Shown here one piece after another: positions 42,568 through 59,560 of a DNA stretch of 64,000 nt. This DNA comes from an uncultured Gammaproteobacteria bacterium (GTDB lineage Bacteria; Patescibacteriota; Patescibacteriia; UBA1558; GWA2-36-10). The stretch's first letter is position 1, and every line of letters starts with the position of its first letter. The stretch is from assembly GCA_964638415.1 (NCBI GenBank), contig CAZWYP010000001.1:148650-212649 (forward strand), written 5' to 3'. The notes beneath the pieces are model-generated. The model saw only the letters and a list, made by a program, of their open reading frames with translations, was not told where the DNA came from and ran no database searches. The position numbers and the translations under genes were made by a program.

Positions 42568-43362
42568 GTGCCTTATTCTTTACTTACAGCTTATCCGACA
42601 GCCTGGTTTAGCCGTCGGCGTAATTTGCCGCTGAGCCGTATTTCTCATAACGCGGCAGTGCTTTTACAATTAGATTCGCTTAGTCTAGTAAAGAAATTAA
42701 AAAATAAGATACCAACTGTCTTAATTTGGCCGGAACAGCAGATTAGAATCGGTAAGATTAAAGCTAATGGCTTGGTATTGCTTAAAGGGCAGCAGGTAGC
42801 CTTAGCTGGTAATAATCATCTGCACAATGTTAATGTTTTTAACTGGCACGAGCAAGTCATTCCGTTGACTGGAGATATTAGTGAACAGGTAAAAATTTCT
42901 GATCGCATTTTTATTAATCACGGCCAAGTGATCTTAATTGTCAGAGAGAATAAGCAGGGGATTATTAGGGCGGAAGTCAGTCGGGGAGGCAAAGTAGCTA
43001 GTAATAGTTTAATCACCTATGCCCGTCAGCAGATAGCTATGGATTTATCTTCCCAGGTAATTGACAATTTAAAGCAGCAAGAAGTTGACTACCTTGCTCT
43101 ACCTGCTGGAAAATACAAAAATATTGTGCAGGCTAAAAAGATTATTGGCAAAGACAAAGCAAAATTAGTTTTGAAAATAAGCCAGTTAAAGCAGTTGGAT
43201 TATCTGGGAGACGCTTGGCCTTTAATTGACGGTGTCTTATTTGATGCTTTGACTCTGGCTACTCAAGTGCCTACAGCCAAAATGGTGATGATTGAAAAAC
43301 AGCTTAATAAGCTAGCTCAGGAAAAGAAAAAGGTTTTAATGATTTATGGAAGATTAAAATAA
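42568..43362 (+). CDS. Hypothetical protein (GTG start)
   Basis: ORF only. Confidence 0.4.
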   Translation: MPYSLLTAYPTAWFSRRRNLPLSRISHNAAVLLQLDSLSLVKKLKNKIPTVLIWPEQQIRIGKIKANGLVLLKGQQVALAGNNHLHNVNVFNWHEQVIPLTGDISEQVKISDRIFINHGQVILIVRENKQGIIRAEVSRGGKVASNSLITYARQQIAMDLSSQVIDNLKQQEVDYLALPAGKYKNIVQAKKIIGKDKAKLVLKISQLKQLDYLGDAWPLIDGVLFDALTLATQVPTAKMVMIEKQLNKLAQEKKKVLMIYGRLK

Positions 43363-43429: not shown

Positions 43430-45835
43430 ATGGGCAAACCAAAGATGATACTCTGGTTCAAGGAAACCGGAATCAAAGATATTCCCAAAGTAGGCGGCAA
43501 GAACGCTTCCTTAGGGGAAATGTACAGCAAATTAACCAAGCAGGGCGTCCGAGTTCCCAACGGTTTTTCCGTCACCGCTGCTGCTTATGATTACTTCTTA
43601 GAAAGCACCGGTGTAAAAAAACAAATCAAGCAGATTCTCAAAGGTTTGGATTCAGACAATATTCCGGAATTGCAGTCCAAAGGCAAGCAAGTCAGGGAAG
43701 CGATTTTAGCGGCGGAATTTCCTGCAGACTTAAAGCAGGAGATTGTTGAGGCTTACCATAAATTATCTAAAGAATTTAAAACTGCCAATACCGATGTAGC
43801 AGTGCGTTCATCAGCAACAGCTGAAGATTTGCCGGATGCTTCTTTTGCCGGCCAGCAGGAAACTTATTTGAATATTAAGGGAGAAAAAGATTTATTAGTG
43901 GCCTGCAAGAAATGCGTATCCTCTTTATTTACTGACCGGGCTATTTCTTACCGGGGAGATAAGAAATTTGACCATTTCAGCATTAAATTATCTATTACCG
44001 TCCAGAAGATGGTTAGATCAGATAAAGGTGTTTCCGGCGTAATGTTTTCCATTGATACCGAATCCGGCTTTAGGGACGCGGTATTAATCAATGGATCTTA
44101 CGGTTTGGGTGAATATGTAGTTTTAGGCGCTGTTAATCCCGATGAATATTATATTTTCAAACCAAGTTTAGCCGCCGGCAAAAATGCCATCATTAGCCGC
44201 AACTTAGGATCCAAGGCCCGTAAATTGATTTACAACGATGCCAAAGCTGCTAAAAGCACTAAAGGCGTATTAGTTTCCAAAGAAGACCGCAACAGATTTT
44301 GTTTGACTGATTCGGAAGTAACGCAACTGGCTAAGTGGGCAGTACAGATTGAAAAGCATTACAAAAAGCCGATGGATATGGAATGGGCCAAAGACGGTAT
44401 TACCGGCAAGTTATTTATTGTCCAAGCTCGCCCAGAAACTGTCCGTTCCCAGGATGATAAAAGATTTTTATTGGAGTATGTTTTAAAAGAGAAAGGCAAG
44501 TTATTAACTACCGGTGCTTCTGTTGGCGCTAAGATCGGCTCGGGAACAGCGCATATTATTAAGGATGTTTCTCAAATCAACCAATTTAAAAACGGCGAGG
44601 TATTAATTACGGAAATGACTGATCCAGATTGGGAACCGATTATGAAAGAAGCTTCGGCGATTGTGACTGAATCTGGCGGCCGGACTTGCCATGCGGCCAT
44701 TATTTCCCGTGAATTAGGCATCCCTTGCGTAGTTGGTACCAAAGATGCAACGCAGAAGATTAAGAATGGCCAAGTTGTCACCGTTAGTTGTGCCGAAGGA
44801 GAACAAGGTCATGTTTACCAGGGAGCGTTGAAATTCGTGGTCAATAAAACGGACTTAAGGAAGATTAAAAAACCGCAGACGAAGATCATGATGAATATTG
44901 GCAATCCGGAAATGGCGATGGCGCAGAGTTTCATACCCAATGACGGAGTAGGATTAGCCAGAGAAGAATTTATTATCTCTACTTATATTAAGATCCATCC
45001 GTTGGCTTTATTGAATTTCAGCAAGGTAACCAGTCCCAAAGTCAGGCAGCAGATTACCGATATGACAGCCGCTTATTCCAGCAAGCCCCAATTCTTTATT
45101 GATAAATTAGCTGAAGGCATTGCTCGCATTGCTGCCAGCTTCTACCCGCAGGATGTTATTGTTCGTTTGTCGGATTTCAAATCTAATGAGTATGCCAATT
45201 TAATTGGCGGTCAGTATTTTGAGCCGGTGGAAAGTAATCCAATGATTGGCTGGCGCGGTGCTTCCCGCTACTATGATCCTAAATATTTGCCGGCTTTTAA
45301 GCTAGAGTGCAAGGCTTTGGTTAAAGTCAGGGAGCAAATGGGTTTGACCAATGTCAAAGTCATGGTGCCTTTTTGCCGAACAGTGACGGAAGGAAAGAAT
45401 GTTTTGAAAATCATGGCCGATAATGGTTTAAAGCGCGGTAAGAATGGCTTAGAAGTTTATGTTATGTGCGAAATTCCCTCCAATGTTATTTTAGCTGATG
45501 AATTCTCTCAGATTTTTGACGGCTTTTCCATTGGTTCTAATGATTTGACGCAATTAGCCTTAGGAGTTGATCGCGATTCAGAATTGGTTTCTCATGTCTA
45601 TGATGAGCGCAATGCGGCAGTTAAGAATTTGATTTCCCAGGTGATTAAAGCAGCTAAAAAGAATAAAAGGAAAATAGGCATTTGCGGACAAGCACCTTCA
45701 GACTTTCCTGACTTTGCCCAGTTCTTAGTAGAGCAGGGTATTGATTCTATCTCGCTTAATCCAGACACGGTTATTAAGACCATGATTGCCATCAACCAAA
45801 CAGAAAAGAAGCTGAAATCGTCCCGCCGTAAATAA
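43430..45835 (+). CDS. ppsA: Phosphoenolpyruvate synthase (pyruvate, water dikinase)
   Basis: ATP-grasp N-terminus, phosphohistidine region GGRTCHAAIISRELGIPCVVG, PEP-utilising TIM barrel; 801 aa; extended -10 TGGTATAAT about 35 nt upstream. Confidence 0.92.
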   Translation: MGKPKMILWFKETGIKDIPKVGGKNASLGEMYSKLTKQGVRVPNGFSVTAAAYDYFLESTGVKKQIKQILKGLDSDNIPELQSKGKQVREAILAAEFPADLKQEIVEAYHKLSKEFKTANTDVAVRSSATAEDLPDASFAGQQETYLNIKGEKDLLVACKKCVSSLFTDRAISYRGDKKFDHFSIKLSITVQKMVRSDKGVSGVMFSIDTESGFRDAVLINGSYGLGEYVVLGAVNPDEYYIFKPSLAAGKNAIISRNLGSKARKLIYNDAKAAKSTKGVLVSKEDRNRFCLTDSEVTQLAKWAVQIEKHYKKPMDMEWAKDGITGKLFIVQARPETVRSQDDKRFLLEYVLKEKGKLLTTGASVGAKIGSGTAHIIKDVSQINQFKNGEVLITEMTDPDWEPIMKEASAIVTESGGRTCHAAIISRELGIPCVVGTKDATQKIKNGQVVTVSCAEGEQGHVYQGALKFVVNKTDLRKIKKPQTKIMMNIGNPEMAMAQSFIPNDGVGLAREEFIISTYIKIHPLALLNFSKVTSPKVRQQITDMTAAYSSKPQFFIDKLAEGIARIAASFYPQDVIVRLSDFKSNEYANLIGGQYFEPVESNPMIGWRGASRYYDPKYLPAFKLECKALVKVREQMGLTNVKVMVPFCRTVTEGKNVLKIMADNGLKRGKNGLEVYVMCEIPSNVILADEFSQIFDGFSIGSNDLTQLALGVDRDSELVSHVYDERNAAVKNLISQVIKAAKKNKRKIGICGQAPSDFPDFAQFLVEQGIDSISLNPDTVIKTMIAINQTEKKLKSSRRK

Positions 45836-45841
45836 ATATAT

Positions 45842-45871
45842 AAACCCCTGACAATTATTGTCAGGGGTTTT
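45842..45871 (+). terminator. Intrinsic terminator AACCCCTGACAATTATTGTCAGGGGTTTT
   Basis: Palindrome plus T-run after the ppsA stop. Confidence 0.8.
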
Positions 45872-45964
45872 GACTAAGCAGGAATATTTTGTTAGTTTTA
45901 ATAATGAGATCTTTGTAAAGGGCAGATTTAATCTGCTCACCATATAGTCAACCAAGGAGTGATT

Positions 45965-46321
45965 ATGCCATTAGAAGAAGAGGAGCAGGTTTTCAAGGAA
46001 GAGCTGTTGGCACGCTTCGGTAATGATCGGGCTTTTCGGTTGCGCGCAACCAAAAAGCACGGGCAACGGACGGTGTCTTTGGTTTTTGAACGCGAACGCT
46101 TGGCTATTGCCGACGGTCGCTTGCATGAATTGCAAAGACAATTGAAATTTAATTTCACCAAGCAGCGCATCATTTTATCTGGCAAGCTAGCCGATATTGA
46201 GCATGCTGTTTACCGGCTTTTATCCAGCAGTGAAATTGTTTCTCCCACGCCCTTGCCTAAGATCAAATTGCCGATCAGGAGGCGTTCAATTAGATTCGCT
46301 GCTGTGCCTGCTGTCCACTGA
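45965..46321 (+). CDS. Hypothetical protein, GC-rich island gene 1
   Basis: ORF 45959-46321, trimmed to ATG 45965 after AAGGAG. Confidence 0.45.
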   Translation: MPLEEEEQVFKEELLARFGNDRAFRLRATKKHGQRTVSLVFERERLAIADGRLHELQRQLKFNFTKQRIILSGKLADIEHAVYRLLSSSEIVSPTPLPKIKLPIRRRSIRFAAVPAVH

Positions 46322-46477
46322 TAATATATTGGTTGCTGCCCGCTTAGAAAGGAGCGGGCTTTTTGTTTTATTATTGACTAAAGCTTTTTTTTCTGCTAAT
46401 ATTCAAAATTGTCAAATAGTACACTTTATTATTTTACCCGGCCAATTTTGGCCATAAATCAACCAGGGAGTTTGCTA

Positions 46478-46822
46478 ATGAGTCCACACAAGCAGCAGAT
46501 GATTGATGGTTTATCGCGTAAGCTGCTGGAAGTTTTTTCCAGCCACAAGATGTTCACGGTACGCGTTGTCGGCGACGGCCAATTTCGGCTGATCATCAAC
46601 CGCAAGCACTTCAACATCGACGAAGTCAAGCTGTTTGATCTCAAGCCGCTTTCATCCGATTCCGGCCAAGTTCACTTCGTCGGTACTGAAGACAAGGTTC
46701 TGGGCTTTGCCAAGGATTTTTCCGCCGCTTCCCAAAAGCGCCCACTGGAACCGAAGATCAGAAATTCCAAGAATCCCCAGCCGACCCAGCATACCAGCGA
46801 TCACGTTCAGCAGACCATTTGA
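46478..46822 (+). CDS. Hypothetical protein, GC-rich island gene 2
   Basis: ORF 46409-46822, trimmed to ATG 46478 after GGGAG; followed by terminator CCCCAC...GTGGGG with a T-run (46843-46880). Confidence 0.45.
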   Translation: MSPHKQQMIDGLSRKLLEVFSSHKMFTVRVVGDGQFRLIINRKHFNIDEVKLFDLKPLSSDSGQVHFVGTEDKVLGFAKDFSAASQKRPLEPKIRNSKNPQPTQHTSDHVQQTI

Positions 46823-46918
46823 CATTGCGCCGTTGATATTTCCCCACCCCGTTAAGCTTAGCTTAGTGGGGTTTATTTTTTAAATAAAAAAACTTCTGGT
46901 GCAGAAGTATAAATTTAA

Positions 46919-47009
46919 TGGCGGAGAGTGAGGGATTTGAACCCTCGAGGGCTTTGACACCCTACTCGCTTTCCAAGCGAGCGCACTAGACCACTATGCG
47001 AACTCTCCA
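46919..47009 (-). tRNA. tRNA-Ser (anticodon GGA), long variable arm, encoded CCA
   Basis: Reverse complement folds as a cloverleaf: acceptor GGAGAGU/ACUCUCC, anticodon stem CUCGC/GCGAG, loop UUGGAAA, T-loop GGGTTCAAATCCC; promoter TTGACT, 16-17 nt, TATACT upstream (47027-47054); terminator CTTCTGCACCAGAAG with a T-run downstream (46887-46912). Confidence 0.9.
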
Positions 47010-47146
47010 GAAATTGACGTTTCTTAGTATAATTTTTTGCTGGAAAAAAGTCAATGTAGATTATTAGCAGCTAATCTAATTGACTTTATTGGTAATAAAA
47101 GCTATTTTTATTTTATAATAAAAGTAATAATTAATGCTAAAATTTT

Positions 47147-47779
47147 ATGAATAAAACTATTATTGGAGTAATTATTGCCGTTATTTTACTAGGCGGCGGC
47201 TGGTGGTTAATGAGTAATAACCAACCGGCAGAACAGAACAGTCAGGTTAATGAAGAAAACACCGAATCAGCAACTATGAAAAGCTCATTAACTTCTCTGC
47301 TTAAATTAGGCAGAAATATGACTTGCACTTACCGCTATAGCGCTGAAGAAGGCGAACAGTCGGGCACAATATATATTGCCGGCAATAAAATGAGCGGAGA
47401 TTTTAATATGATGGCTGATGGCAAACCATTTGTCGGGCATATGATCCAGGATGGTGAATGGAGTTATACCTGGGGCGGTCCAATGTCGGAGAAGCAGGGG
47501 GTGAAAATAAAACTATCAGAGATTGAAGATAAGCAGTCAGGTGATGTTCCAGAACAGAGCAGCATTGATCCGGATGTTGAATATGATTATGATTGCGATA
47601 ACTGGTCGCCGGATAATGATAAATTTACTCCACCGGCTGATGTGGTTTTCCAAGACCTAAGTCAGTTAATTCCGTCCTTGCCTACCAAAGAGACTAATGA
47701 TAATTCCCAATGCGCGGTTTGTGATCAGGTGCCGGCTGGAGAGGCGCAAGAGCAATGCCGTCAGGCTTTAGGCTGCTAA
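47147..47779 (+). CDS. Hypothetical secreted/membrane-anchored protein, Cys-containing
   Basis: Signal/anchor IIGVIIAVILLGGGWWL; first gene of the NOX cluster. Confidence 0.5.
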   Translation: MNKTIIGVIIAVILLGGGWWLMSNNQPAEQNSQVNEENTESATMKSSLTSLLKLGRNMTCTYRYSAEEGEQSGTIYIAGNKMSGDFNMMADGKPFVGHMIQDGEWSYTWGGPMSEKQGVKIKLSEIEDKQSGDVPEQSSIDPDVEYDYDCDNWSPDNDKFTPPADVVFQDLSQLIPSLPTKETNDNSQCAVCDQVPAGEAQEQCRQALGC

Positions 47780-47792
47780 TTTTATAGCTAAA

Positions 47793-49097
47793 ATGAAAAA
47801 AATAAAGTTTTATTTTTTCTTATTACTGATTTCTTTATTAGTACTCTGGCCGGTGATTGGCTTGTATTTTAATGGGAGCTGGCAGGGAATGTTTGCTTCC
47901 TGGGTTAGCTTGTCTAATGCTGCGGGAAAAATTTTAGGCTTAATTGGTCTAGCTACTTTTTCCTTAGGCTTAATCTTATCTGCCCGCTTTGTTTGGATGG
48001 ATAAATTATTATCTGATTTTACCAAGATCTTGAAAGTCCATCGCTGGCTGGGGGTTATTTCTTTTTCTTTTATTCTTTTTCATCCTTTATTATTAGCTTT
48101 CAGCTTACTGCCGGCTTCCAGCCAATATGCCTGGGGACTGTTTTGGACTTGGTCCGATGCTTCTCTAGTCTTTGGTTATCTGGCTCTCTTATTATTCATG
48201 CTGCTAGTCTTGATGACTTTTTTCTGGCGCTTGCAATATGAACGCTTAAAAATGCTGCATAGCCTATTAGCTGTGCCTTTGATGCTGGGGGGTATTCATG
48301 CTTTGTTAATCGGCAGTGATGTTAAAGCACATGCTTGGCTGGCTTGGTATTATATAATTTTAATTTCTTTGGGAGTTTTGGCTTACCTTTGGCGCATCTA
48401 TACTGTTTCCTGGGGGATTAAAAGCAAGCAGTATATTATTGATGCTATTTCTCAACCGACGCCGCAAACCGTTAAAATTACTTTCCGCCCTAAAGCCAAA
48501 AGCTTAGCTGTCCAGGCTGGCCAGTTTATCTTTGTCAGCTTTGAGCAATTAGGAAAAGCTGAAGAGCATCCGTTCTCCGTGGCTGGCATTGATCAGGATA
48601 AGATAACTATTGTTGCCAAAGCTTTAGGAGATTTTACCCAGAGGTTAGCCACGCTTAAGGTTAATAGTCTAGCCATGATTGACGGCCCTTATGGTTCTTT
48701 CGGTCAAGTCAGTGAGCGCTACAAGCATCAGGTGTGGATTGCTGGCGGTATCGGCATTACACCGTTCTTAAGCTTAGCTCAGGAGTTTGCCAAGAATAAT
48801 AAACCTAATGATAAAGTGGATTTAATTTATGCCGTAGCCAAGTCTGCAGACTTTGTAGGTCTAGATAAATTAGAGCAACTAGCCAAAGCCTATCCGCAGT
48901 TTAGAGTTATCCCTTATGTTAGTGAAGAGCAGGGTAGATTAGATGTTAACCAGATTAAAAAAATAACCAATGATTTTACTGACTGTGTTTTTTGCTTATG
49001 CGGACCGCAGGGTATGGTAGCCAGCTTAGTGGCTCAGCTGAAGAAAGCTTCTATTCCCAAATCTCGTATTAATATTGAAGCTTTTGAATTATTGTAA
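47793..49097 (+). CDS. NADPH-oxidase/ferric-reductase-family flavocytochrome (TM bis-His heme domain, FAD domain, NAD(P)H domain)
   Basis: Two His pairs spaced 13 apart in TM helices (HRWLGVISFSFILFHP; HSLLAVPLMLGGIHA), HPFS FAD motif, GGIGITPF NAD motif, C-terminal CGP. Confidence 0.75.
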   Translation: MKKIKFYFFLLLISLLVLWPVIGLYFNGSWQGMFASWVSLSNAAGKILGLIGLATFSLGLILSARFVWMDKLLSDFTKILKVHRWLGVISFSFILFHPLLLAFSLLPASSQYAWGLFWTWSDASLVFGYLALLLFMLLVLMTFFWRLQYERLKMLHSLLAVPLMLGGIHALLIGSDVKAHAWLAWYYIILISLGVLAYLWRIYTVSWGIKSKQYIIDAISQPTPQTVKITFRPKAKSLAVQAGQFIFVSFEQLGKAEEHPFSVAGIDQDKITIVAKALGDFTQRLATLKVNSLAMIDGPYGSFGQVSERYKHQVWIAGGIGITPFLSLAQEFAKNNKPNDKVDLIYAVAKSADFVGLDKLEQLAKAYPQFRVIPYVSEEQGRLDVNQIKKITNDFTDCVFCLCGPQGMVASLVAQLKKASIPKSRINIEAFELL

Positions 49098-49101
49098 TTA
49101 T

Positions 49102-49566
49102 ATGAATAAGATTGTAATTATTGCCGTGTTTATTTTCTGGGCTATTGTCAGTTTTTTCTTTGTCCGGAGCTTATTTGATAAGCAACCTGAGGTTTTGCTT
49201 AATAGTACTAATAGCCAGTTGCCAGCAGAAGACGCTACTGGTCAGGCCTTCAGCGTTGATTTAGTAGCTCAGCACAATACTGCGGCTGACTGTTGGGTAA
49301 CTTATGGCAATACCGTTTATAACGTCACGGATTATCTCAACTCCCATCCTGGCGGTAGAGATCGCATTATTCCCTACTGTGGTTCAGACATTGCCGCTGC
49401 TTTTGCTGCTCAAGGACACTCTAATACTGCCACCAGTATTTTAAATGGTTTAGCTATTGGGACTATTGGTCAAATAATTTCTAATGATCCTAACACTATT
49501 ACTCCACCGCCGGTAAGTAACCCAAAGAAGGACGATGATGACGATGAAAAAGAAGATGATGATTAA
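49102..49566 (+). CDS. Membrane-anchored cytochrome b5-like heme-binding protein with an acidic tail
   Basis: HPGG motif (YLNSHPGG) and a second His in AQGHS; N-terminal TM; ORF 49075-49566, trimmed to ATG 49102. Confidence 0.7.
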   Translation: MNKIVIIAVFIFWAIVSFFFVRSLFDKQPEVLLNSTNSQLPAEDATGQAFSVDLVAQHNTAADCWVTYGNTVYNVTDYLNSHPGGRDRIIPYCGSDIAAAFAAQGHSNTATSILNGLAIGTIGQIISNDPNTITPPPVSNPKKDDDDDEKEDDD

Positions 49567-49570
49567 ATAA

Positions 49571-49600
49571 GATACCCTATAGTTTTATAGGGTATTTTTT
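49571..49600 (+). terminator. Intrinsic terminator GATACCCTATAGTTTTATAGGGTATTTTTT
   Basis: Palindrome plus T-run. Confidence 0.8.
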
Positions 49601-49608
49601 GTTATAAT
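49600..49608 (+). promoter_or_regulatory. Extended -10 promoter TGTTATAAT upstream of the beta-lactamase-like gene
   Basis: TGnTATAAT read from the sequence; similar elements at 15749, 43387 and 54725. Confidence 0.45.
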
Positions 49609-49623
49609 ATATACTGATATTTT

Positions 49624-50616
49624 ATGAATAATAATAACGAGCAAACAGCCTATTTGACTAATAAGTCAAAAACACACAAGTTAATTATATTTTTTTTGCT
49701 ATTAACCAATATTTTTACTGGGGGATGGTTTTTTATTTACCAAAAAGATCATCTAATAAACCCAAAAGAATACCCGTACATAGATGTTACTAGAAGTTTA
49801 ATTCCCCAGGAGCATTTTGTGGTTAATTTGGAGCCGCTTAGAGAAAGCTTAGATCAATTAGTTAAAGATTTTGGCGAAGATTCAGTGTCCATTTATATAG
49901 AATTTTTAAATACTGGAGCTAATATTTCAATTAATAAAGATAATTATATTTGGCCAGCTAGTTTAACTAAACTTCCGGTAGCTATGGCGACAATGAAAAA
50001 GATTGAGAAAGGGGAATGGGAATTTAATAATGAACTGGTTTTAACAAGAGAAGATGTAAATCAATTTTCCGGGGATGCTAAGGATCCCTTATCTGAATAT
50101 CCGGTGGGCAGCAGATTTACTATTCGCAAACTTTTGGAGGAATTATTAATAAATTCTGATAATACTGCTTATTATATTTTACTTCGCAATATTCATGAAG
50201 ATGAGCTGAAAGAAGTAATTTTAAATATCGGAATTGAAACATTATTTTCTCCTTCCGGCCAGATTTCATCCAAAGAATATTCCAGAATCTTTAGGGCTTT
50301 ATACACTTCCAGTTTTTTAAAGAGAGAAAACTCCCAGTATTTATTGGAAATATTAGATCAATCTGTCTTTGATGAATTTTTATCTGGCGCTGTGGCAAAA
50401 GAAATTCCTTTTCCCCATAAATATGGGCAAGATGACAAGAACAAGGCTTATTCTGATTCGGGTATAGTATATTTGCCATACCGACCTTATATAATTACGG
50501 TGATGGTACAGGGCGATCAGAATGAATCTTTTGAAAGTGAAAAAACCAAGGCGGCAGATTTTATGAATAAAGTTTCTCAGATTACTTACGAATATTTTTC
50601 TCTACAGACTAAATAA
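49624..50616 (+). CDS. Class-A beta-lactamase-like serine hydrolase, membrane-anchored
   Basis: SxxK (ASLTK), SDN (NSDNTAY), K(T/Y)G (HKYGQD) motifs; N-terminal TM. Confidence 0.65.
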   Translation: MNNNNEQTAYLTNKSKTHKLIIFFLLLTNIFTGGWFFIYQKDHLINPKEYPYIDVTRSLIPQEHFVVNLEPLRESLDQLVKDFGEDSVSIYIEFLNTGANISINKDNYIWPASLTKLPVAMATMKKIEKGEWEFNNELVLTREDVNQFSGDAKDPLSEYPVGSRFTIRKLLEELLINSDNTAYYILLRNIHEDELKEVILNIGIETLFSPSGQISSKEYSRIFRALYTSSFLKRENSQYLLEILDQSVFDEFLSGAVAKEIPFPHKYGQDDKNKAYSDSGIVYLPYRPYIITVMVQGDQNESFESEKTKAADFMNKVSQITYEYFSLQTK

Positions 50617-50618
50617 TT

Positions 50619-53600
50619 ATGTCGAAGAAGATAAAAAATATTATTAGGATATTTTCAATTACTTTTGTTTCTTTTATTTTTTTATTGACTAATGTTTTTA
50701 GCGGGCTAACCAGCTGGTTTTACGAGTATCTTAAAAACAGCAATATAGTAGATATATTATGGCAGGCTCAGCACAGTAAATCCGTAGTGGATAATTTCTT
50801 AAAGGATAACTTAACCGTAAGGCAGACTTCTGCAGCAGAAATAACAATTGAATCGGATACTACTGATGCTACTTTTGAGTACGGCACTTCTCCAGCGGTA
50901 GTCTTTACTACTGATCAGATTGGCTATGTTTTTTTTGTTGACGCTGGCAATGATCTGGTCTACAGAAAAACTACTAATGGGGGTACTAATTGGGCAGCAC
51001 CGACGATCATAGACAATGTAGTGACTGGCTGGGTTTCAGTTGCTGTTTGGTATGACCAATGGACTCCCGGAGATAGTAGTAATACCAAGATTCATATTGC
51101 TGCTTCCGATAATGCTTCTGACGATATTTTTTATACTTACTTGGACACTAACGGAGATAATCTAAAGGGTAGCGTGGTAACGGCAGTGTCGGGCTCAGCC
51201 ACTTTAACTGCTGGCGCTGACGGCCCACCCAGCATTACCAAAGGCGCTGGTGGAGCATTATTTGTATCAGGTAATTTCACCAGCACTGCCGGAGGCAAGG
51301 TTTCTAAGTCAACGGACGGCGCTGGAGATAGTTGGTCCGATGTCACTCCTTCCGGCTGGAGTTCAGTAGCAATTGACCAGATCCAATTATTACCTCTTTT
51401 AACTGGAGATGACATCATAGCGATTAAAGCAGAAACTGCTAATAATGCCATAAAATACCAAATTTACGATGAAACCAATGATCAATGGCCAGCCTCCTGG
51501 AGTAATATTGCTACACTAACCGAAAACACCACCTATGATCAATGGTTTTCCGCTACCATCAAGAAATCCACTGGCGATGTTTATCTGACTTTTGCTAATC
51601 AGACAGCCAATGCTGCTAATGATATTGAATTCTGGAGCTTTGATGAAAGTAATAGGGGTAGTGGCTTTGTGAAAGGCACTAACAATGTTTATGATAACAG
51701 CAATTTGATTATTTCCCCAGTGCCCTTAACAGATGAAAATACTGGAGATATTTATGTGGCGTATATCAGTGGAAGAATTCAAGGAACGATAGGTGCGGTA
51801 ACTCATGTGTTTTATAAAAAATCTACTGACGGCGGCAATACCTGGAGTAATGAATACGGTAATATCAATAACGATGTTGGTGATGACTACCGTTATTTGA
51901 GAGGCAATTTATTAAGTAGTGATCGCTTGTTTATTATTTATCACGATGATGATGACAATGATATACTTGGTACTACGATTGAGTCTCAGGATACTACCGT
52001 TGAAGCCAATGTAGATACTGCCATTATTGATGCTACGGATGAATATGGGCCATCACCATCAGGGGTGTTCACTACGGAAGATGTTGGTTATAAATTTTTT
52101 GTAAAAACCAATACTGTTTTGGATGGCACTGATGAATTTGGCCCATCACCGTCAGTGGTTTTTACAGATGCTAATACTGGCTATGCTTTTTTTGTTAGCG
52201 CTGTTAATCAGGATTTAGTTTACGCCAAGACGATTAATGGCGGAGCCAATTGGAGCGGACAAGTGATAATTGATTCAGCAGTTGGTGGCTGGACAATGGC
52301 TTCTGTCTGGTACGATCAGTGGACGCCGGGGGATACTACTGGAACCAAGATTCACATTGCTGCTTCTGATGATGTGTCTGATGACATTTACTATACTTAT
52401 CTGGATACTAATGGTGATACTTTGAAGGGTAGCGTGGTAACGGCGGTTTCAGGGTCAACTACTTTAACGGAAGCAAGCGACGGTCCACCCAGCATTACCA
52501 AAGGCGCTGGTGGGGCATTATTTGTATCAGGCAATTTCACCAGCACTGCTGGAGGCAAAGTTTCTAAGTCAACGGACGGTGCTGGAGATAGTTGGTCCGA
52601 TGTCACTCCTTCGGGCTGGAGCTCAGTAGCAATTGACCAAATACAACTACTGCCGTTGTTAACTGGAAATGATATTATGGCGATTAAAGCCCAGACGGCA
52701 GATAACACTATTAGATACCAAATTTACGACGAAACTAATGATCAATGGCCAGCCTCCTGGACTAATATTGCCACTTTAACTGAGAACCTTACCTATTACC
52801 AATGGTTTTCTGCTACCATCAAGAAATCCACTGGTGATGTTTATCTGACTTTTGCCAATCAGACAGCTAATGCTGCTAATGATATTGAATTCTGGAGCTT
52901 TGATGAAAGTAATAGGGGCAGTGGTTTTGTTCAAGGTGCTAATATATTTACTGATAATGCCACCGTTATTTCCCCAGTCCCTATCATAGAAGAAGATACG
53001 GGTAATATTTATGTAGCTTATATCAGAGGCACGTTAAATGCTACCGTGAGGGTTTATTATAAAAGCTCAACTGACGGCGGAGCTAATTGGGGCAGTGAGT
53101 CGTCCAGTGTTAGTCCGACTACTGCTGATGATCATAAGTACTTAAGAGGAAATATTCTTAACAATGATACTTTATATGTCGTTTGGTACAATGACGATAC
53201 TAATATCCTAAGGGGGAACTCTCTTTTGTCACCAATCGCTACTGATGTGCCTTTGACCGGTCAGTCCATAGCTTTTAGAAAGACTACCACCGGCGGGGCT
53301 GCTTGGGGGACTTTGCGTATTTTAGCACCAGGTTTAGGCGCCACCATGGTTTCTGTCTGGTATGATCGATGGACGCCTGGGGACACCACTGGAACCAAGA
53401 TCCATGTTGTTTATTCTGATGATGTGACTGATGATTATTATTATACTTATTTAGATACCAATGGCGATGAGATTGGCTTTAATAAACCAGTAATTTTAGG
53501 ATCAGCTATTACTGAGTTGGGTGTCGGTACGCCAGGTATTACCAAAGGCGCTGGGGGAGCTTTATTTTTATCTGGTCAATTTAATACTACTGCCGGAGGC

Positions 53601-54686
53601 AAAGTATATAAGTCGGTCAATGGTGGAGACACCTGGTCCGATGTTACTCCTTCCGGTTGGAGCTCAGTAGCAATTGACCAGATCCAATTATTACCGCTTT
53701 TAACTGGAGATGACATTATGGCTATCAAAGCCCAGACAGCAGATGATACTATTAGATACCAAATTTACGATGAAACCAATGATCAATGGCCTGATTCTTG
53801 GACTAGTATTGCTACACTAACCGAAAACACTACCTATGACCAATGGTTTTCCGCTACCATCAAGAAATCCACTGGCGATGTTTATCTGACTTTTGCTAAT
53901 CAGACGGCCAATGCTGCTAATGATATTGAATTCTGGAGCTTTGATGAAAGTAATAGGGGCAGTGGCTTTGTGAAGGGCACCAATAATGTTTATGATAATA
54001 GCAACGTTATTCTTTCCCCCATAACTTTAATTGATGAAAATAATGGTAATTTATATGTGGCTTATTTACGAGGCACTCTGGAAAATAATATGGGGGTGTA
54101 TTACAAGACTTCCACTGACGGCGGGGACACCTGGAGCGCAGAATCAGCTAATTTAGGTCCAGGCTTGGTTGATGATCATAAGTATCTACACAGCACCTTA
54201 TTGAGCGGAGATAGGCTTTATATATTTTGGTATAACGATGATTTAGAGGATATTATGGGTAATACCATTCCATTTTTGGTGGCAGCGGAAATATCAATTA
54301 CTTTATCTACCGATGGTTCCATTTCTTTTGGCGGACTCTCTTTAGAAGCAGTTGAAGACACTACTGCTGGAGGAATTAATGATGTGGAAACGATTAATGT
54401 GGATTCAGGCCCAGTTGATTTGGATATTAGAAGTACAACGTGGTCTGAAGGGGCTAATATTTGGACCCTAGGCAATGATAGTGCGGATAATCAGGTATTA
54501 TGGGAATTCTCTCCCAATGGCAGCTCTTGGTCAACTTTTCTAGTGGCTGATAATTTATATAATTTGGCAACCAATGTTTCTCAAGGTAATAGTCAGAATG
54601 TCTATTTCCGTCTTAGTATGCCCACGATTACTGACTCTTATCAGGAATACAGCGCTGATGTTACTATAGTAGCCTCTAGTCCCTAA
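50619..54686 (+). CDS. Giant cell-surface protein (1355 aa) with an N-terminal TM anchor, three tandem ~420-aa modules carrying Asp-box/BNR motifs (SxDxGxTW), and a distinct C-terminal domain
   Basis: Asp-box motifs KSTDGGNTWS, SSTDGGANWG, TSTDGGDTWS, TTNGGTNWA, TINGGANWS, SVNGGDTWS; near-identical nucleotide repeats. Confidence 0.75.
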   Translation: MSKKIKNIIRIFSITFVSFIFLLTNVFSGLTSWFYEYLKNSNIVDILWQAQHSKSVVDNFLKDNLTVRQTSAAEITIESDTTDATFEYGTSPAVVFTTDQIGYVFFVDAGNDLVYRKTTNGGTNWAAPTIIDNVVTGWVSVAVWYDQWTPGDSSNTKIHIAASDNASDDIFYTYLDTNGDNLKGSVVTAVSGSATLTAGADGPPSITKGAGGALFVSGNFTSTAGGKVSKSTDGAGDSWSDVTPSGWSSVAIDQIQLLPLLTGDDIIAIKAETANNAIKYQIYDETNDQWPASWSNIATLTENTTYDQWFSATIKKSTGDVYLTFANQTANAANDIEFWSFDESNRGSGFVKGTNNVYDNSNLIISPVPLTDENTGDIYVAYISGRIQGTIGAVTHVFYKKSTDGGNTWSNEYGNINNDVGDDYRYLRGNLLSSDRLFIIYHDDDDNDILGTTIESQDTTVEANVDTAIIDATDEYGPSPSGVFTTEDVGYKFFVKTNTVLDGTDEFGPSPSVVFTDANTGYAFFVSAVNQDLVYAKTINGGANWSGQVIIDSAVGGWTMASVWYDQWTPGDTTGTKIHIAASDDVSDDIYYTYLDTNGDTLKGSVVTAVSGSTTLTEASDGPPSITKGAGGALFVSGNFTSTAGGKVSKSTDGAGDSWSDVTPSGWSSVAIDQIQLLPLLTGNDIMAIKAQTADNTIRYQIYDETNDQWPASWTNIATLTENLTYYQWFSATIKKSTGDVYLTFANQTANAANDIEFWSFDESNRGSGFVQGANIFTDNATVISPVPIIEEDTGNIYVAYIRGTLNATVRVYYKSSTDGGANWGSESSSVSPTTADDHKYLRGNILNNDTLYVVWYNDDTNILRGNSLLSPIATDVPLTGQSIAFRKTTTGGAAWGTLRILAPGLGATMVSVWYDRWTPGDTTGTKIHVVYSDDVTDDYYYTYLDTNGDEIGFNKPVILGSAITELGVGTPGITKGAGGALFLSGQFNTTAGGKVYKSVNGGDTWSDVTPSGWSSVAIDQIQLLPLLTGDDIMAIKAQTADDTIRYQIYDETNDQWPDSWTSIATLTENTTYDQWFSATIKKSTGDVYLTFANQTANAANDIEFWSFDESNRGSGFVKGTNNVYDNSNVILSPITLIDENNGNLYVAYLRGTLENNMGVYYKTSTDGGDTWSAESANLGPGLVDDHKYLHSTLLSGDRLYIFWYNDDLEDIMGNTIPFLVAAEISITLSTDGSISFGGLSLEAVEDTTAGGINDVETINVDSGPVDLDIRSTTWSEGANIWTLGNDSADNQVLWEFSPNGSSWSTFLVADNLYNLATNVSQGNSQNVYFRLSMPTITDSYQEYSADVTIVASSP
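51167..54010 (+). repeat. Three tandem intragenic repeats; core ~530-nt segments (about 51170-51700, 52430-52960, 53470-54000) are near-identical; period ~1260 and ~1040 nt
   Basis: Landmarks ATTACCAAAGGCGCTGG (51235/52494/53540) and TTCTGGAGCTTTGATGAAAGTAATAGGGG (51631/52891/53929). Confidence 0.85.
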
Positions 54687-55894: not shown

Positions 55895-56941
55895 ATGATT
55901 GTTTCCAAAGCCAAAATTTTTCTTTTCCTATTCCCTCTATTGTTAGTGGGAATATTTTTTGTAGCTAAGTTTGTTATTGCTCAATCTTACAATATTGATG
56001 CTCAGGTTAGAATCAGTGTTTGTGGTAACGGTGACGCTGAAGGTGGTGAAGAATGTGATGGAGCTGATTTTAATGGCTTAAGCTGCTCTAACTTTGGTTT
56101 TAGCTCTGGTAATTTAACTTGTGATATCGCTTGTGATATTGATGCCAGTGATTGCCGGAACACTACTGGCGGAGGAGGCGGTGGCGGAGGAGGCGGTGGT
56201 GGCGGCGGGGGAATTCCCCCGGTGCAGACTAGTGTTACTTTTTCCGGCCGGGCTTATCCGCAAAGCGAAGTCACTATTTTAAAAGACGGCCAGATTGCCA
56301 TAACTACTATTGCCGGCCCAGACGCTAATTTTTATGTATCATTAACTGGCTTGGCGGCGGGTAATTATAATTTTGCTGTTTATAGTGAAGACAGTGATAA
56401 TCGCCGCTCAACTCTTTTTACTTTCCCTGTATATATTACTGCTGGCGCTACCACCAATATTAGCGGTATTTATATCGCCCCTACCATTGCCGTAGATAAA
56501 AGTCAGGTTAGGCGCGGGGATAACATAGCTATTTTCGGCCAAACTGTGCCTAGTGCTAATGTGACTATTTCAGTTCATTCCAACCCAGAATATTTCCGTT
56601 ACATTATTGCTGACGAAGATGGTGTTTATTTGCATAATTTTGATACTTCAATTTTGGCTCAAGGCGGCCATAATACAAAATCTAAATCCGCAATAACTGG
56701 AGAAATCAGCTCTTTTGGTCAAACAGTAGGTTTTACCGTGGGTGAAGACAATGTGCCGGCAGAGGAAACAAATGATTTGCCAGCAGATGTTAATAATGAT
56801 AATAAGGTTAATTTAATTGATTTTTCCGTGGCCGCTTACTGGTATGGCCGGGCAAATCCTCCGGCTAATGTCGATCTTAATAAGGATGGCAAAGTGAATT
56901 TAGTTGATTTTAGTATCATGGCTTATCATTGGACTGGTTAA
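55895..56941 (+). CDS. Membrane-anchored protein with a Cys-rich module, a 29-residue poly-Gly linker, Ig-like region and a C-terminal type-I dockerin (two Ca-binding repeats)
   Basis: DVNNDNKVNLIDFSVAAYW and DLNKDGKVNLVDFSIMAYHW fit the D-x-N-x-D-x-x-x-N-x-x-D dockerin consensus exactly. Confidence 0.75.
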   Translation: MIVSKAKIFLFLFPLLLVGIFFVAKFVIAQSYNIDAQVRISVCGNGDAEGGEECDGADFNGLSCSNFGFSSGNLTCDIACDIDASDCRNTTGGGGGGGGGGGGGGGIPPVQTSVTFSGRAYPQSEVTILKDGQIAITTIAGPDANFYVSLTGLAAGNYNFAVYSEDSDNRRSTLFTFPVYITAGATTNISGIYIAPTIAVDKSQVRRGDNIAIFGQTVPSANVTISVHSNPEYFRYIIADEDGVYLHNFDTSILAQGGHNTKSKSAITGEISSFGQTVGFTVGEDNVPAEETNDLPADVNNDNKVNLIDFSVAAYWYGRANPPANVDLNKDGKVNLVDFSIMAYHWTG

Positions 56942-57823: not shown

Positions 57824-59560
57824 ATGAAAAGATTTTTCGGCAAAGCAATAAGTGTATTTTTATTAGTTGGTGTTTTTTTATTTAACCAAGTCTTATTGGC
57901 TCAGGCCGCTACTATTTTTCCATCTCCTAATTCCGGTAGTTATAATATTGGCAAGTCATTCTCGGTTGGTGTTTTTGTTTCCAGCGCCGATCAGGCTATT
58001 AATGCCGTATCGGGAACTTTATCTTTCCCCAAAGATAAATTAGAAGTCACTTCTGTTTCCAAATCTGGTTCAGTTGTTTCTTTGTGGGTGCAGGATCCTT
58101 CTTTCTCCAATAGCGCCGGCACAGTAAGTTTTGAAGGTATTGTGCTTAATCCCGGTTTTACTGGCGCTAGCGGTAGGATTATAACGGTAAATTTCCGCGC
58201 TAAGAATGGCGGTGCTGCGCCGATTACTTTCTCCGCCGGTTCGGTACTGGCTAATGACGGGCAGGGTACTAATATTTTATCTGGCTTAGGCAGTGCTAGA
58301 TATGATATTGAAGTGCCGGTTTCCGGGCCAGCGGCGCCGGAAGCTGAAACCCCCTCAGCGATTATTGGCACACCGCCGGCTCCTTTGGTTTCTTCCCAAA
58401 CCCATGAAGATCCTGATCGCTGGTATAATAATAATCAGCCGCAATTCAGCTGGTCTTTGCCGGAAGGCATAACCGCCGTTAAATTATTGGCAGATAATAA
58501 GCCGCAAAGCGATCCGTCTGTAGTTTATGCCCAGCCGATTAGTTCCCGCAACCTTGATCAGCTGGAAGATGGTATTTGGTATTTCCATATTCAGTTGCAG
58601 AATAGCGTAGGCTGGGGAGGCATTGCCCATTTCCGTTTCCAGATTGATACCAAGAATCCAGAATATTTCAATATTTCGGAAGTAGCCCGCCAAGACTTAA
58701 CTGAGCCATTTGCCAAGTTTATCTTTGAGGCAGCTGATGAAGTTTCCGGTATTGACCATTATGAGATTCAGATTGATAACAATGAAGCTATTGTCTGGCA
58801 GGATGATGGCACTGGTATTTACCAGACGCCAGTTTTAGCGCCAGGCAAGCACCGGATGATGGTTAAGGTCTTTGACGGCGCCGGTAATAGCATTGCCAAT
58901 TTTGCGGAGTTTGAAATTACCGCTTTAACTTTGCCGACTATTAATAATTTCACCAAGGATTTAACCAGCAGCGAGCGCTTCCGGGCTACCGGCAGCTCTT
59001 ATCCTAATGCTCAGGTAATTTTTGAGCTTAATAAATCAGGTGAAGAAACCGTGACGCTTACCGCTAATACAGATGAGCAGGGTAATTTTGATTTAATCAG
59101 TGAAGACCCATTGGTTGACGGCAAGTATAAGTTGAGAGTGAAAGTGGTGGATAGCAGGGGAGCGCAGAGTTTCTGGACAGAGGATTTTGAGGTTAGGGTT
59201 CAGAAACCGGCATTATGGCGCTTCGGCTCGGTTGCCATCAGCGTTTTGTCAGTGATCATCCCGTTGTTTGCTCTAATTACCTTACTAGCATTTATGCTTT
59301 GGTATAGCTGGCATAAGTTCCGCTCTTTCCGCCGTCGGGTAAGCCGAGAAGTCAGCGAAGCAGAAGTGGTTTTACAGAATGCCTTTGCTAATTTAAAAGT
59401 TAGCGTAGCCAACAGGGTAAAGATGTTGGAAAAAACTGGTCAGAAAAGAGATTTAACACCAGAAGAGGCCAGAATGGTTATGCAGCTTCGCAAGGACTTG
59501 GATCGGGCAGAAAGCATTGTCGCCAAGGAAATTAGGGATATTCAGAAAGAAGTAAAGTAG
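57824..59560 (+). CDS. Cohesin-like domain protein 2 (signal, cohesin-like N-domain, Pro-rich linker, Ig-like domains, TM, cytoplasmic coiled-coil tail)
   Basis: N-domain homologous to the preceding gene (INAVSGTLSFPKDKLEV...FRAKNGGAAPITF...ANDGQGT). Confidence 0.55.
   Translation: MKRFFGKAISVFLLVGVFLFNQVLLAQAATIFPSPNSGSYNIGKSFSVGVFVSSADQAINAVSGTLSFPKDKLEVTSVSKSGSVVSLWVQDPSFSNSAGTVSFEGIVLNPGFTGASGRIITVNFRAKNGGAAPITFSAGSVLANDGQGTNILSGLGSARYDIEVPVSGPAAPEAETPSAIIGTPPAPLVSSQTHEDPDRWYNNNQPQFSWSLPEGITAVKLLADNKPQSDPSVVYAQPISSRNLDQLEDGIWYFHIQLQNSVGWGGIAHFRFQIDTKNPEYFNISEVARQDLTEPFAKFIFEAADEVSGIDHYEIQIDNNEAIVWQDDGTGIYQTPVLAPGKHRMMVKVFDGAGNSIANFAEFEITALTLPTINNFTKDLTSSERFRATGSSYPNAQVIFELNKSGEETVTLTANTDEQGNFDLISEDPLVDGKYKLRVKVVDSRGAQSFWTEDFEVRVQKPALWRFGSVAISVLSVIIPLFALITLLAFMLWYSWHKFRSFRRRVSREVSEAEVVLQNAFANLKVSVANRVKMLEKTGQKRDLTPEEARMVMQLRKDLDRAESIVAKEIRDIQKEVK

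Follow-up and report, generated by a model that had tools for sequence, protein, structure and literature searches.

We analysed a stretch of 64,000 nucleotides, hereafter the window, from an assembly deposited as an uncultured Gammaproteobacteria bacterium and placed by GTDB in the Patescibacteriota (GCA_964638415.1, contig CAZWYP010000001.1, positions 148,650 to 212,649 of the forward strand). It contains a cluster of three genes encoding a secreted protein, a NOX-like flavocytochrome and a cytochrome b5, and our main finding concerns the last two, which recur together as adjacent genes across related loci. We think it probable, if far from certain, that their products form a two-component transmembrane electron-export chain that carries electrons from NAD(P)H to the b5 outside the cell. 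An earlier note, made from the sequence of the window without database searches, had described a cluster of three genes here, and all three open reading frames (ORFs) are present at its coordinates, on the + strand. The cluster and the features of the flavocytochrome gene are as follows.

47147-49566, + strand: three tightly packed ORFs
47793-49097, + strand: gene for the 434-amino-acid NOX-like flavocytochrome (SpNOX-type, bacterial long-form ferric reductase domain (FRD) protein)
47793-48410, + strand: ferric-reductase transmembrane (TM) domain, six hydrophobic segments by hydropathy
48039-48083, + strand: heme ligands H83 (inner) and H97 (outer) of TM3, x13 spacing
48258-48299, + strand: heme ligands H156 (inner) and H169 (outer) of TM5, x12 spacing
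48567-48581, + strand: FAD-binding motif HPFSV, residues 259-263, located with the regular expression for the filter of Hajjar et al.
48747-48764, + strand: NAD(P)H-binding motif GIGITP, residues 319-324
48999-49007, + strand: CGP motif of the NAD-binding domain, residues 403-405
49083-49085, + strand: F431, the C-terminal aromatic residue, aligned to SpNOX F397

Based on these features, the middle gene is predicted to encode an SpNOX-type flavocytochrome of the bacterial long-form FRD group. Its product matches, in this order, Pfam Ferric_reduct (residues 48-165, E = 1.9e-12), FAD_binding_8 (E = 3.9e-10) and the pair NAD_binding_1 and NAD_binding_6 (E = 1.2e-14 and 1.5e-06), all four exceeding the gathering cut-offs, and the product of the third gene matches Cyt-b5 (PF00173; E = 3.9e-19, 68.9 bits against a cut-off of 23.7). 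These matches are strong and not due to chance, and they include every profile that the earlier note had suggested searching (Ferric_reduct, FAD_binding_8, NAD_binding_6 and Cyt-b5). The hydrophobic segments, called by hydropathy and not by TMHMM, lie at residues 6-24, 44-62, 88-106, 125-143, 155-173 and 181-206, and the two histidine pairs align with those of SpNOX (H83 and H97 with His69 and His83, H156 and H169 with His129 and His142). In an alignment of 12 sequences with identities down to 31%, the four histidines are invariant, as are HPF, GGIGITPF, C403, P405, E429 and F431, and G404 is found in at least 90% of the sequences. The SpNOX counterpart of F431 gates the access of nicotinamide to the flavin (PMC11031084). 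Among solved structures, the best phmmer match was SpNOX itself (8qt6 and 8qq7; residues 36-432 against 23-397, E = 4e-28), followed by weaker matches to NADH-cytochrome b5 reductases, NOX2, DUOX1 and NOX5, those to NOX2 spanning residues 197-346 only.

The sequence filters for bacterial NOX proteins defined by Hajjar et al. 2017 (PMC5676040) pick out HPFSV at residue 259 with the FAD pattern H[PSA]F[TS][LIMV], GIGITP at residue 319 with the NAD(P)H motif, and two His-x12/14-His pairs, which they place in the third and fifth of three to seven TM helices and which lie here in segments 3 and 5 of six. The proposed mark of oxygen-reducing NOX enzymes, a histidine four residues past the outer TM3 ligand (His-119 of NOX2; Zhang et al. 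2013, PMC3591440), is absent: the position is L101 in the window protein and leucine in at least 90% of the clade, and SpNOX also lacks this histidine. This replacement argues against a dedicated generator of reactive oxygen species (ROS). The same signature includes a Thr-178/Gly-179 dipeptide in TM4, outside the residues that the structural matches to NOX2 cover. Proteins of the MsrQ/YedZ/STEAP type carry an arginine instead of the first canonical TM3 histidine (PMC3591440). Since the window protein retains this histidine as the invariant H83 and has the FAD and NAD domains fused to it, it is not of that type, and no MsrQ model was among its NCBIfam matches at E <= 0.01. Thus, the NOX/FRE architecture that the earlier note had read in this protein was borne out by domains, motifs and the SpNOX alignment; its histidine pairs held across the 12 sequences, and it groups with NOX/FRE-type rather than MsrQ-type enzymes.

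More than 1,400 homologs of the flavocytochrome were scored at E <= 1e-5. Those with names belong to the Patescibacteria (Parcubacteria/Paceibacteria, Saccharibacteria, Shapiro-, Woese-, Wolfe- and Nomurabacteria, and others) and to some DPANN archaea, and at least 559 stretches of species-representative genomes encode a relative. The names of these homologs place the window organism among the bacteria of the candidate phyla radiation (CPR). The homolog search missed the window's own protein, which clustering at 90% identity files under a 56-residue fragment as the cluster representative. Several records of metagenome-assembled genomes (MAGs) labelled "uncultured Gammaproteobacteria" (e.g., L012, L014, L016 and L054) have low GC contents and NOX-b5 loci around 50% identical to that of the window, and the taxonomy assigned to these third-party assemblies seems doubtful.

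The third protein is a membrane-anchored b5 with an HPGG motif and an acidic tail, just as the earlier note had it, and its gene has the following features.

49102-49566, + strand: gene for the 154-amino-acid membrane-anchored cytochrome b5, beginning 4 nucleotides after the NOX stop codon
49108-49176, + strand: N-terminal TM anchor, residues 3-25, called by hydropathy and modelled as a helix with a predicted local distance difference test score (pLDDT) >80
49249-49473, + strand: b5 heme domain, residues 50-124, with axial His82 (HPGG) and His106 and with Cys64 and Cys93
49531-49563, + strand: acidic C-terminal tail, KKDDDDDEKEDDD (DDDDDEKEDDD)

The ORF list starts this gene at a TTG codon (49075; 163 amino acids) that overlaps the NOX gene; most likely the gene begins instead with the ATG at 49102, because the 154-residue product is the form found in public collections. 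H82 and H106 are invariant in close b5 homologs, and judged by its ligands the window b5 appears to be of the classical bis-His type and not of the Tyr-ligated, MAPR-like type. In the aligned b5 domains, the HPGG histidine is found in 68 of 68 and the second axial histidine in 55 of 70, with most of the other rows having a histidine one or two columns away. Of the 15 close homologs, 14 finish in an acidic tail (it is weaker in P0130), as do 15 of the 47 syntenic partners. In the PDB, the window domain is matched best by the b5 domain of Scs7, a fatty-acid hydroxylase. Tandem b5 domains occur in the syntenic partners, double in eight and triple in one. The closest homologs are two-domain proteins and the window copy has a single domain; in the nearest of them (P0121, 77% identical), the two tandem domains are nearly identical, which is consistent with either a recent deletion in the window lineage or a duplication in its relatives through recombination between repeats.

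Three kinds of evidence point to a heme domain located outside the cell, as predicted from sequence: the distribution of charge, a pair of cysteines and the wall-associated domains that some homologs carry. When the short segment before the hydrophobic helix was compared with the 15 residues after it, the net charge was higher on the N-terminal flank in 47 of 48 syntenic partners (mean +3.1 versus +0.2); a linker of around 25 residues then separates the anchor from the heme domain. The cysteines C64 (in DCW) and C93 (in YCG) are conserved at 97% and 94%, and they align exactly with both cysteines of the periplasmic cytochrome b558 of Ectothiorhodospira vacuolata (1CXY), whereas eukaryotic cytosolic b5 proteins have none at these positions. 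The two cysteines of 1CXY presumably form a disulfide. One partner protein contains an SH3_3 domain, and partners from other genomes have Pro/Thr-rich linkers. We also observed that two divergent b5-like partners (L027, 1446-2156, and L045, 7299-8000) end in LPXTG-type sortase signals (LPRTG and LPVTG) followed by a hydrophobic tail, which implies covalent attachment to the cell wall.

The conservation of the pairing was evaluated in 80 species-representative loci, the best matches to the window NOX protein. A single-sequence phmmer search found a b5 ORF directly downstream and on the same strand in 39 of these, an iterated b5-domain profile raised this number to 47 of the 78 loci that could be evaluated, and the inclusion of divergent variants raised it to 52. 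Unsupervised all-against-all clustering of the ORFs led to a similar number, with the b5 family in 53 of the 80 loci at a median offset of -3 nucleotides from the NOX stop codon. The next most frequent neighbour was a generic ABC ATPase family (16 loci), and all others were found in at most 9 loci. The b5 is, in sum, the only broadly recurrent neighbour of the NOX-like gene. The divergent variants are of two kinds. In saccharibacterial partners, the proline of HPGG is replaced, and of these one passes the Pfam cut-off, one is a weak match and one is undetected; in the other kind, a domain of the form "RCLYI…PH·G·PCG·DVTS…H" aligns with b5 in hhalign at 89% probability (E = 2e-6), with both histidines and both cysteines aligned. 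Three saccharibacterial loci encode, besides the adjacent b5-like partner, a second protein of around 800 amino acids with a C-terminal b5-like domain, 1.3 to 1.8 kb downstream of the NOX-like gene (L052, 9010-11523; L086, 8503-10983; L088, 2979-5444). The pairing is not restricted to the CPR, as Pfam confirms the pair in Chloroflexota, namely a complete Chloroflexia chromosome (62.5% GC) and a Dehalococcoidia MAG, and in DPANN archaea.

If the pair works as we propose, the flavocytochrome would span the membrane with six TM helices, and its N-terminus (MKKIK) together with the number of segments would put the dehydrogenase domain on the cytoplasmic side, where SpNOX has it. Electrons would pass from NAD(P)H to FAD, then to the inner heme (H83/H156), the outer heme (H97/H169) and the outer face of the membrane, where the b5 heme domain, held at the surface by its anchor and linker, would take them from the outer heme. 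The pair would then act as a membrane-spanning NAD(P)H:cytochrome b5 reductase. NOX-type hemes have low potentials, so that, by established redox potentials, transfer to a b5 is downhill; from this we infer the direction of flow. The b5 would dock directly on the exposed outer heme. In SpNOX the outer heme is highly exposed, the outer loops are short, and cytochrome c is reduced directly under anaerobic conditions. The authors of the SpNOX structural papers consider that neither the physiological role nor the true electron acceptor of bacterial NOX homologs is established, that O2 may not be the physiological one and that a protein acceptor probably exists (PMC11031084; Dubach et al.); the b5 could be this postulated acceptor. 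Our best guess is that the chain serves as an electron sink that conserves no energy and discharges to oxidants outside the cell, with ferric iron as the leading candidate and oxygen as the second. Ferric iron as the acceptor would serve iron acquisition as well as the regeneration of NAD(P)+ in a fermentative cell.

Several observations weigh against this proposal. Roughly one in three of the closest species-representative loci has no b5-like neighbour, so the enzyme can work without a b5 or with other partners, and in a wider census only 185 of 1,427 CPR genomes had Cyt-b5 and a PF01794 gene no more than 10 kb apart (bioRxiv 10.1101/2021.11.17.468889). Other neighbours take the place next to the NOX-like gene at some loci: a cupredoxin (Cupredoxin_1/Copper-bind) lies directly downstream in Shapirobacteria (L084, 5109-5546), a multicopper oxidase directly upstream in Nomurabacteria, with an SH3_3-b5 protein downstream (L005, 4406-5860), and an ApbE flavin-transferase immediately upstream in five loci. 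This variety is consistent with a swappable outer partner. No third conserved gene that would mark the terminal acceptor recurred when the ORFs of the 80 loci were clustered. For the CPR/DPANN clade, it is gene order alone that suggests electron transfer to the b5, and the b5 topology is predicted by sequence rules. An AlphaFold2 model of the b5 from a 15-sequence alignment had a mean pLDDT of 54, too poor for reading the Cys64-Cys93 distance, which leaves the 1CXY alignment as the basis of the disulfide argument. CPR bacteria are generally considered unable to make heme, so the three heme sites would need scavenged heme. Finally, the export of electrons by this route dissipates the membrane potential instead of building it.

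The ApbE neighbours touch on a further matter, as they link the clade to the flavinylation-associated "MsrQ-like" systems of Actinobacteria; at one locus, ApbE (L018, 5052-5933; Pfam E = 9.4e-48) is found together with a b5 gene.

Other readings of the pair must be weighed against electron export to the b5. One that we regard as rather unlikely is an assimilatory ferric reductase, which would reduce extracellular Fe(III) chelates so that Fe(II) could be taken up, with the b5 as an external mediator, or with the enzyme acting alone, as in yeast Fre1 and plant FRO2. It shares the transmembrane chain with our proposal and differs only in iron being the dedicated terminal acceptor. The superfamily and architecture are the same as those of the eukaryotic FRE enzymes, the NOX-specific His-119 equivalent is lacking (L101), the conserved acidic tail of the b5 could bind cations, the multicopper oxidase upstream at L005 recalls the Fre1/Fet3 pairing of yeast, and in Actinobacteria the iron transporter VIT1 is associated with related PF01794 systems (PMC8238504). 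However, within 6 kb the 80 loci share no recurrent iron transporter or iron gene of another kind, we identified no signal of regulation by iron, and SpNOX was without direct ferric reductase activity in vitro (PMC5676040). We consider it improbable that the protein is a stand-alone superoxide-producing NAD(P)H oxidase, reducing O2 at the outer heme to yield ROS for signalling, competition or interaction with a host, with the b5 accessory or unrelated. The tight linkage of a b5 gene kept across phyla would be unexpected in such a case, as would the nearly invariant leucine at the eukaryotic O2 site; many host lineages come, according to the record titles, from groundwater and sediment metagenomes, and the SpNOX structural studies give no validated O2 pocket and question O2 as the physiological acceptor. 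Nevertheless, the window protein satisfies every sequence filter that Hajjar et al. set for bacterial NOX proteins, and its nearest relative in sequence, SpNOX, produces superoxide in vitro (PMC5676040).

The electrons might also be destined for an extracytoplasmic repair or biosynthetic enzyme encoded elsewhere in the genome (for instance, a hydroxylase or desaturase that depends on b5, or a methionine-sulfoxide reductase), by analogy with MsrQ/MsrP. We find this quite improbable, given that no third conserved gene lies near the pair in the 80 loci and that the window yielded no MsrP-like or desaturase gene, even though MsrQ, the only prokaryotic FRD protein of proven function, feeds a protein partner (PMC11031084), b5 domains classically donate electrons to oxygenases (the Scs7 match being to a hydroxylase), and partners differ among loci (b5, cupredoxin or ApbE-linked). 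Very improbable, in our view, is a cytoplasmic b5 that is reduced directly by the dehydrogenase domain for an intracellular reaction, as in eukaryotic NADH-cytochrome b5 reductase (Cb5R) and its b5. Cb5R structures are indeed among the best non-NOX matches of the dehydrogenase domain in the PDB (2eix, E = 1.1e-10; 7rom, E = 3.3e-08), but the charge bias puts the N-terminus in and the C-terminus out in 47 of 48 partners, the cysteine pair is shared with periplasmic b558, partner proteins show SH3_3 and LPXTG features, and the anchor is N-terminal, not a C-terminal tail anchor as in eukaryotic b5.

The electron-export chain that we favour resembles several known systems in part. With SpNOX, the window flavocytochrome shares its size, six TM helices, two bis-His hemes on TM3 and TM5 (x13 and x12), an FNR-type FAD/NAD(P)H domain, the C-terminal phenylalanine (F431/F397), short extracellular loops and a full-length alignment; it differs in belonging to a CPR/DPANN-centred clade that usually co-encodes an external b5, whereas no such partner is reported in the cited SpNOX literature. 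MsrQ of the MsrQ/MsrP system (YedZ/YedY in E. coli) is likewise an FRD membrane heme protein with short outer loops, an exposed outer heme and a dedicated extracytoplasmic protein partner, but it has no fused dehydrogenase domain and draws on quinol or Fre, it has an arginine for the first TM3 histidine, and its partner MsrP is a molybdoenzyme and not a b5. The Actinobacterial "MsrQ-like" flavinylation systems combine a PF01794 protein and an NAD-binding domain with an extracytosolic carrier, and a flow from NAD(P)H to the outside with a possible role in iron assimilation has been proposed for them (Meheust et al. 2021, PMC8238504); in contrast to the window pair, their carrier is an FMN-binding protein flavinylated by ApbE, and ApbE is absent beside the window NOX gene. 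In the eukaryotic Cb5R/b5 system, an FNR-family flavoprotein reduces a bis-His b5, and its structures match the window dehydrogenase domain; there, both proteins are on the same side of the membrane and the b5 is tail-anchored at its C-terminus, whereas the window pair would have two transmembrane hemes interposed and a b5 anchored N-terminally on the opposite side. As for the b5 itself, the extracytoplasmic b558 matches over the whole domain (E = 5e-11), including both axial histidines and both cysteines, but it is soluble and has no known NOX-like partner, unlike the anchored window b5 with its acidic tail.

The closest precedent is a 2021 preprint on CPR pFre/b5 clusters, in which ferric-reductase-like PF01794 genes occur with PF00173 genes and predicted TM helices in CPR hosts (bioRxiv 10.1101/2021.11.17.468889). 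By the measure used there, a PF00173 gene no more than 10 kb from a PF01794 gene, the window pair is such a cluster, the two genes being adjacent with a 4-nucleotide gap. The focus of the preprint was a rare b5 of the Tyr-ligated, MAPR-like kind (36 genomes), along with atypical b5-like genes and a two-component system; the ancestral form that it proposed, with the MAPR-like Tyr-ligated b5, two b5-like genes and the two-component system, is not what the window holds, as it has one classical b5 only, and no response regulator or histidine kinase was present among the scanned window ORFs. Its authors speculated on a membrane complex and deemed the pairing CPR-specific, and they drew no link from pFre to NOX or SpNOX, to an outward b5 topology or to the acceptor question.

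Around the pair, the bounds of the cluster and its upstream surroundings are the following.

45959-46321 and 46409-46822, + strand: two small ORFs of 120 and 137 amino acids, no Pfam or NCBIfam matches
46919-47008, - strand: tRNA-Ser(GGA), directly 5′ of the cluster
47080-47108, + strand: promoter-like site TTGACT-17 nt-TATTTT from a consensus scan, around 40 nucleotides 5′ of the first gene
47147-47779, + strand: gene for the 210-amino-acid secreted or anchored Cys-containing protein, with an N-terminal hydrophobic segment and six cysteines
49569-49608, + strand: intrinsic-terminator-like hairpin (13 pairs) with a T-run, starting 3 nucleotides past the b5 stop codon

The gaps between the genes are 13 nucleotides (210-residue protein to NOX-like gene) and 4 nucleotides (NOX-like gene to b5 gene), and together with the promoter-like site and the terminator hairpin they indicate that the three genes are probably one unit in the window genome, in which the 210-residue protein is probably co-transcribed with the pair. 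The promoter-like site is weak evidence, with 20 such sites in the region compared with 13.5 +/- 3.3 in shuffles.

The conservation of the upstream gene is another matter. The earlier note had listed the Cys-containing secreted protein within the cluster. The NOX-b5 pair is a conserved module, but the secreted protein is not part of it: a profile of the 210-residue family had no match in the 80 NOX loci, and in the closest relative (L092, with a NOX protein 70% identical), homologs of the small ORFs, the tRNA-Ser(GGA) and the NOX gene follow one another in this order with no such gene. The family has no Pfam or NCBIfam match. A word-indexed search was misleading, yielding two homologs only, both in unrelated neighbourhoods; an exhaustive search gave 3,315 cluster representatives (50% identity) at E <= 1e-3 and 2,076 at E <= 1e-10. 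Four cysteines are invariant in the family, and several Trp, Phe and Tyr positions are invariant or nearly so. Because the gene is absent from the L092 locus and the 80 NOX loci and its homologs lie in unrelated neighbourhoods, we conclude that it encodes an exported, lineage-specific neighbour inserted beside the tRNA gene, a bystander outside the redox module. The CxxC sequence of the protein (C189/C192) was considered as a redox site and rejected, since only C192 is conserved across the family. AlphaFold2 gave a model with a pLDDT of 65 and a confident beta-meander core, for which Foldseek found nothing in the PDB below E = 0.009, with a TM-score of at most 0.25, and no fold was assigned. 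One homolog adjoins a thioredoxin gene (L009). At L092, the same tRNA (95% identical) stands immediately before the NOX gene in the opposite orientation relative to that gene, which suggests a local inversion or an insertion that brought in the 210-residue gene.

The two small ORFs upstream are conserved in the L092 contig (52% and 39% identity by tblastn) and are therefore probably real genes; terminator-like hairpins follow them at 46338-46359 and 46846-46872. In the ORF-poor stretch 45836-47146, Rfam gave the tRNA-Ser only. Further upstream, a 264-residue ORF (42568-43362, + strand) with a weak, partial match to the pyruvate-kinase barrel (E = 1.3e-5, below the cut-off), located just 5′ of a full-length PEP synthase gene (43430-45835), may be a truncated or divergent pyruvate kinase. 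Downstream, a class-A beta-lactamase-like gene (49624-50616, + strand) was considered as a module member and rejected, as the terminator intervenes and phmmer gave 0 matches across the loci; its candidacy arose from Peptidase_S11/Beta-lactamase2 genes near NOX in L001 and L003, to which orthology was not detectable. Its product is membrane-anchored and matches Pfam Beta-lactamase2 (E = 1.4e-35), far under every NCBIfam beta-lactamase cut-off. The next gene (50619-54686, + strand) encodes a protein of 1,355 amino acids with three internal repeats of around 430 residues and Asp-box-like "S/T-x-D/N-G-G-x-x-W" motifs, matching BNR_2 below threshold only, which is probably a large surface beta-propeller protein, and genes 3′ of it contain Ig-like and dockerin domains (55895-56941 and 57824-59560).

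No respiratory complexes, quinone genes or heme genes were found among the ORFs scanned in the 64-kb window. Its other genes are of housekeeping and fermentative types (PEP synthase, D-2-hydroxyacid dehydrogenase, phosphoglucomutase, SHMT, FolD, UvrABC and GroEL). The earlier note had remarked on an apparently fermentative genome and advised looking for other respiratory components, and the gene content fits its remark for the 64 kb that the window covers.

That note had also called the module notable and had named as candidate roles the extracellular reduction of iron, oxygen or quinone, ROS production and redox interaction with a host. The pair is real, but it is less novel than this implied, since CPR pFre/b5 clusters were reported in 2021. 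Annotation for the enzyme family already exists, that preprint had noted the gene pairing, and our literature search for a published NOX-b5 functional link, or for both Pfam families, found nothing else. What we add is modest: a bis-His b5 that is predicted to face outwards, a pair that is the sole conserved unit, and a reach extending to DPANN archaea and Chloroflexota. It seems that the b5 had not been connected before with the protein acceptor that bacterial NOX enzymes are missing.

CPR and DPANN organisms are generally viewed as lacking respiratory chains. We offer tentatively, as something possible rather than probable, the broader idea that a surface-anchored b5 is the physiological protein acceptor of SpNOX-type NOX enzymes, and that the two make up the simplest known extracellular electron-transfer chain, in which one to three b5 domains act as a short wire for electron disposal or iron reduction at the cell or host surface in CPR bacteria, DPANN archaea and some Chloroflexota. 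A conserved, translationally coupled and predicted outward-facing b5 is a concrete candidate for the acceptor, and one that is testable with two recombinant proteins. If the idea is true, bacterial NOX homologs would be recast from ROS generators to protein reductases, and the module would be among the few routes from cytoplasmic NAD(P)H to the outside in CPR and DPANN organisms, with a bearing on their redox balance, iron acquisition and interaction with hosts and with an implied need for scavenged heme.

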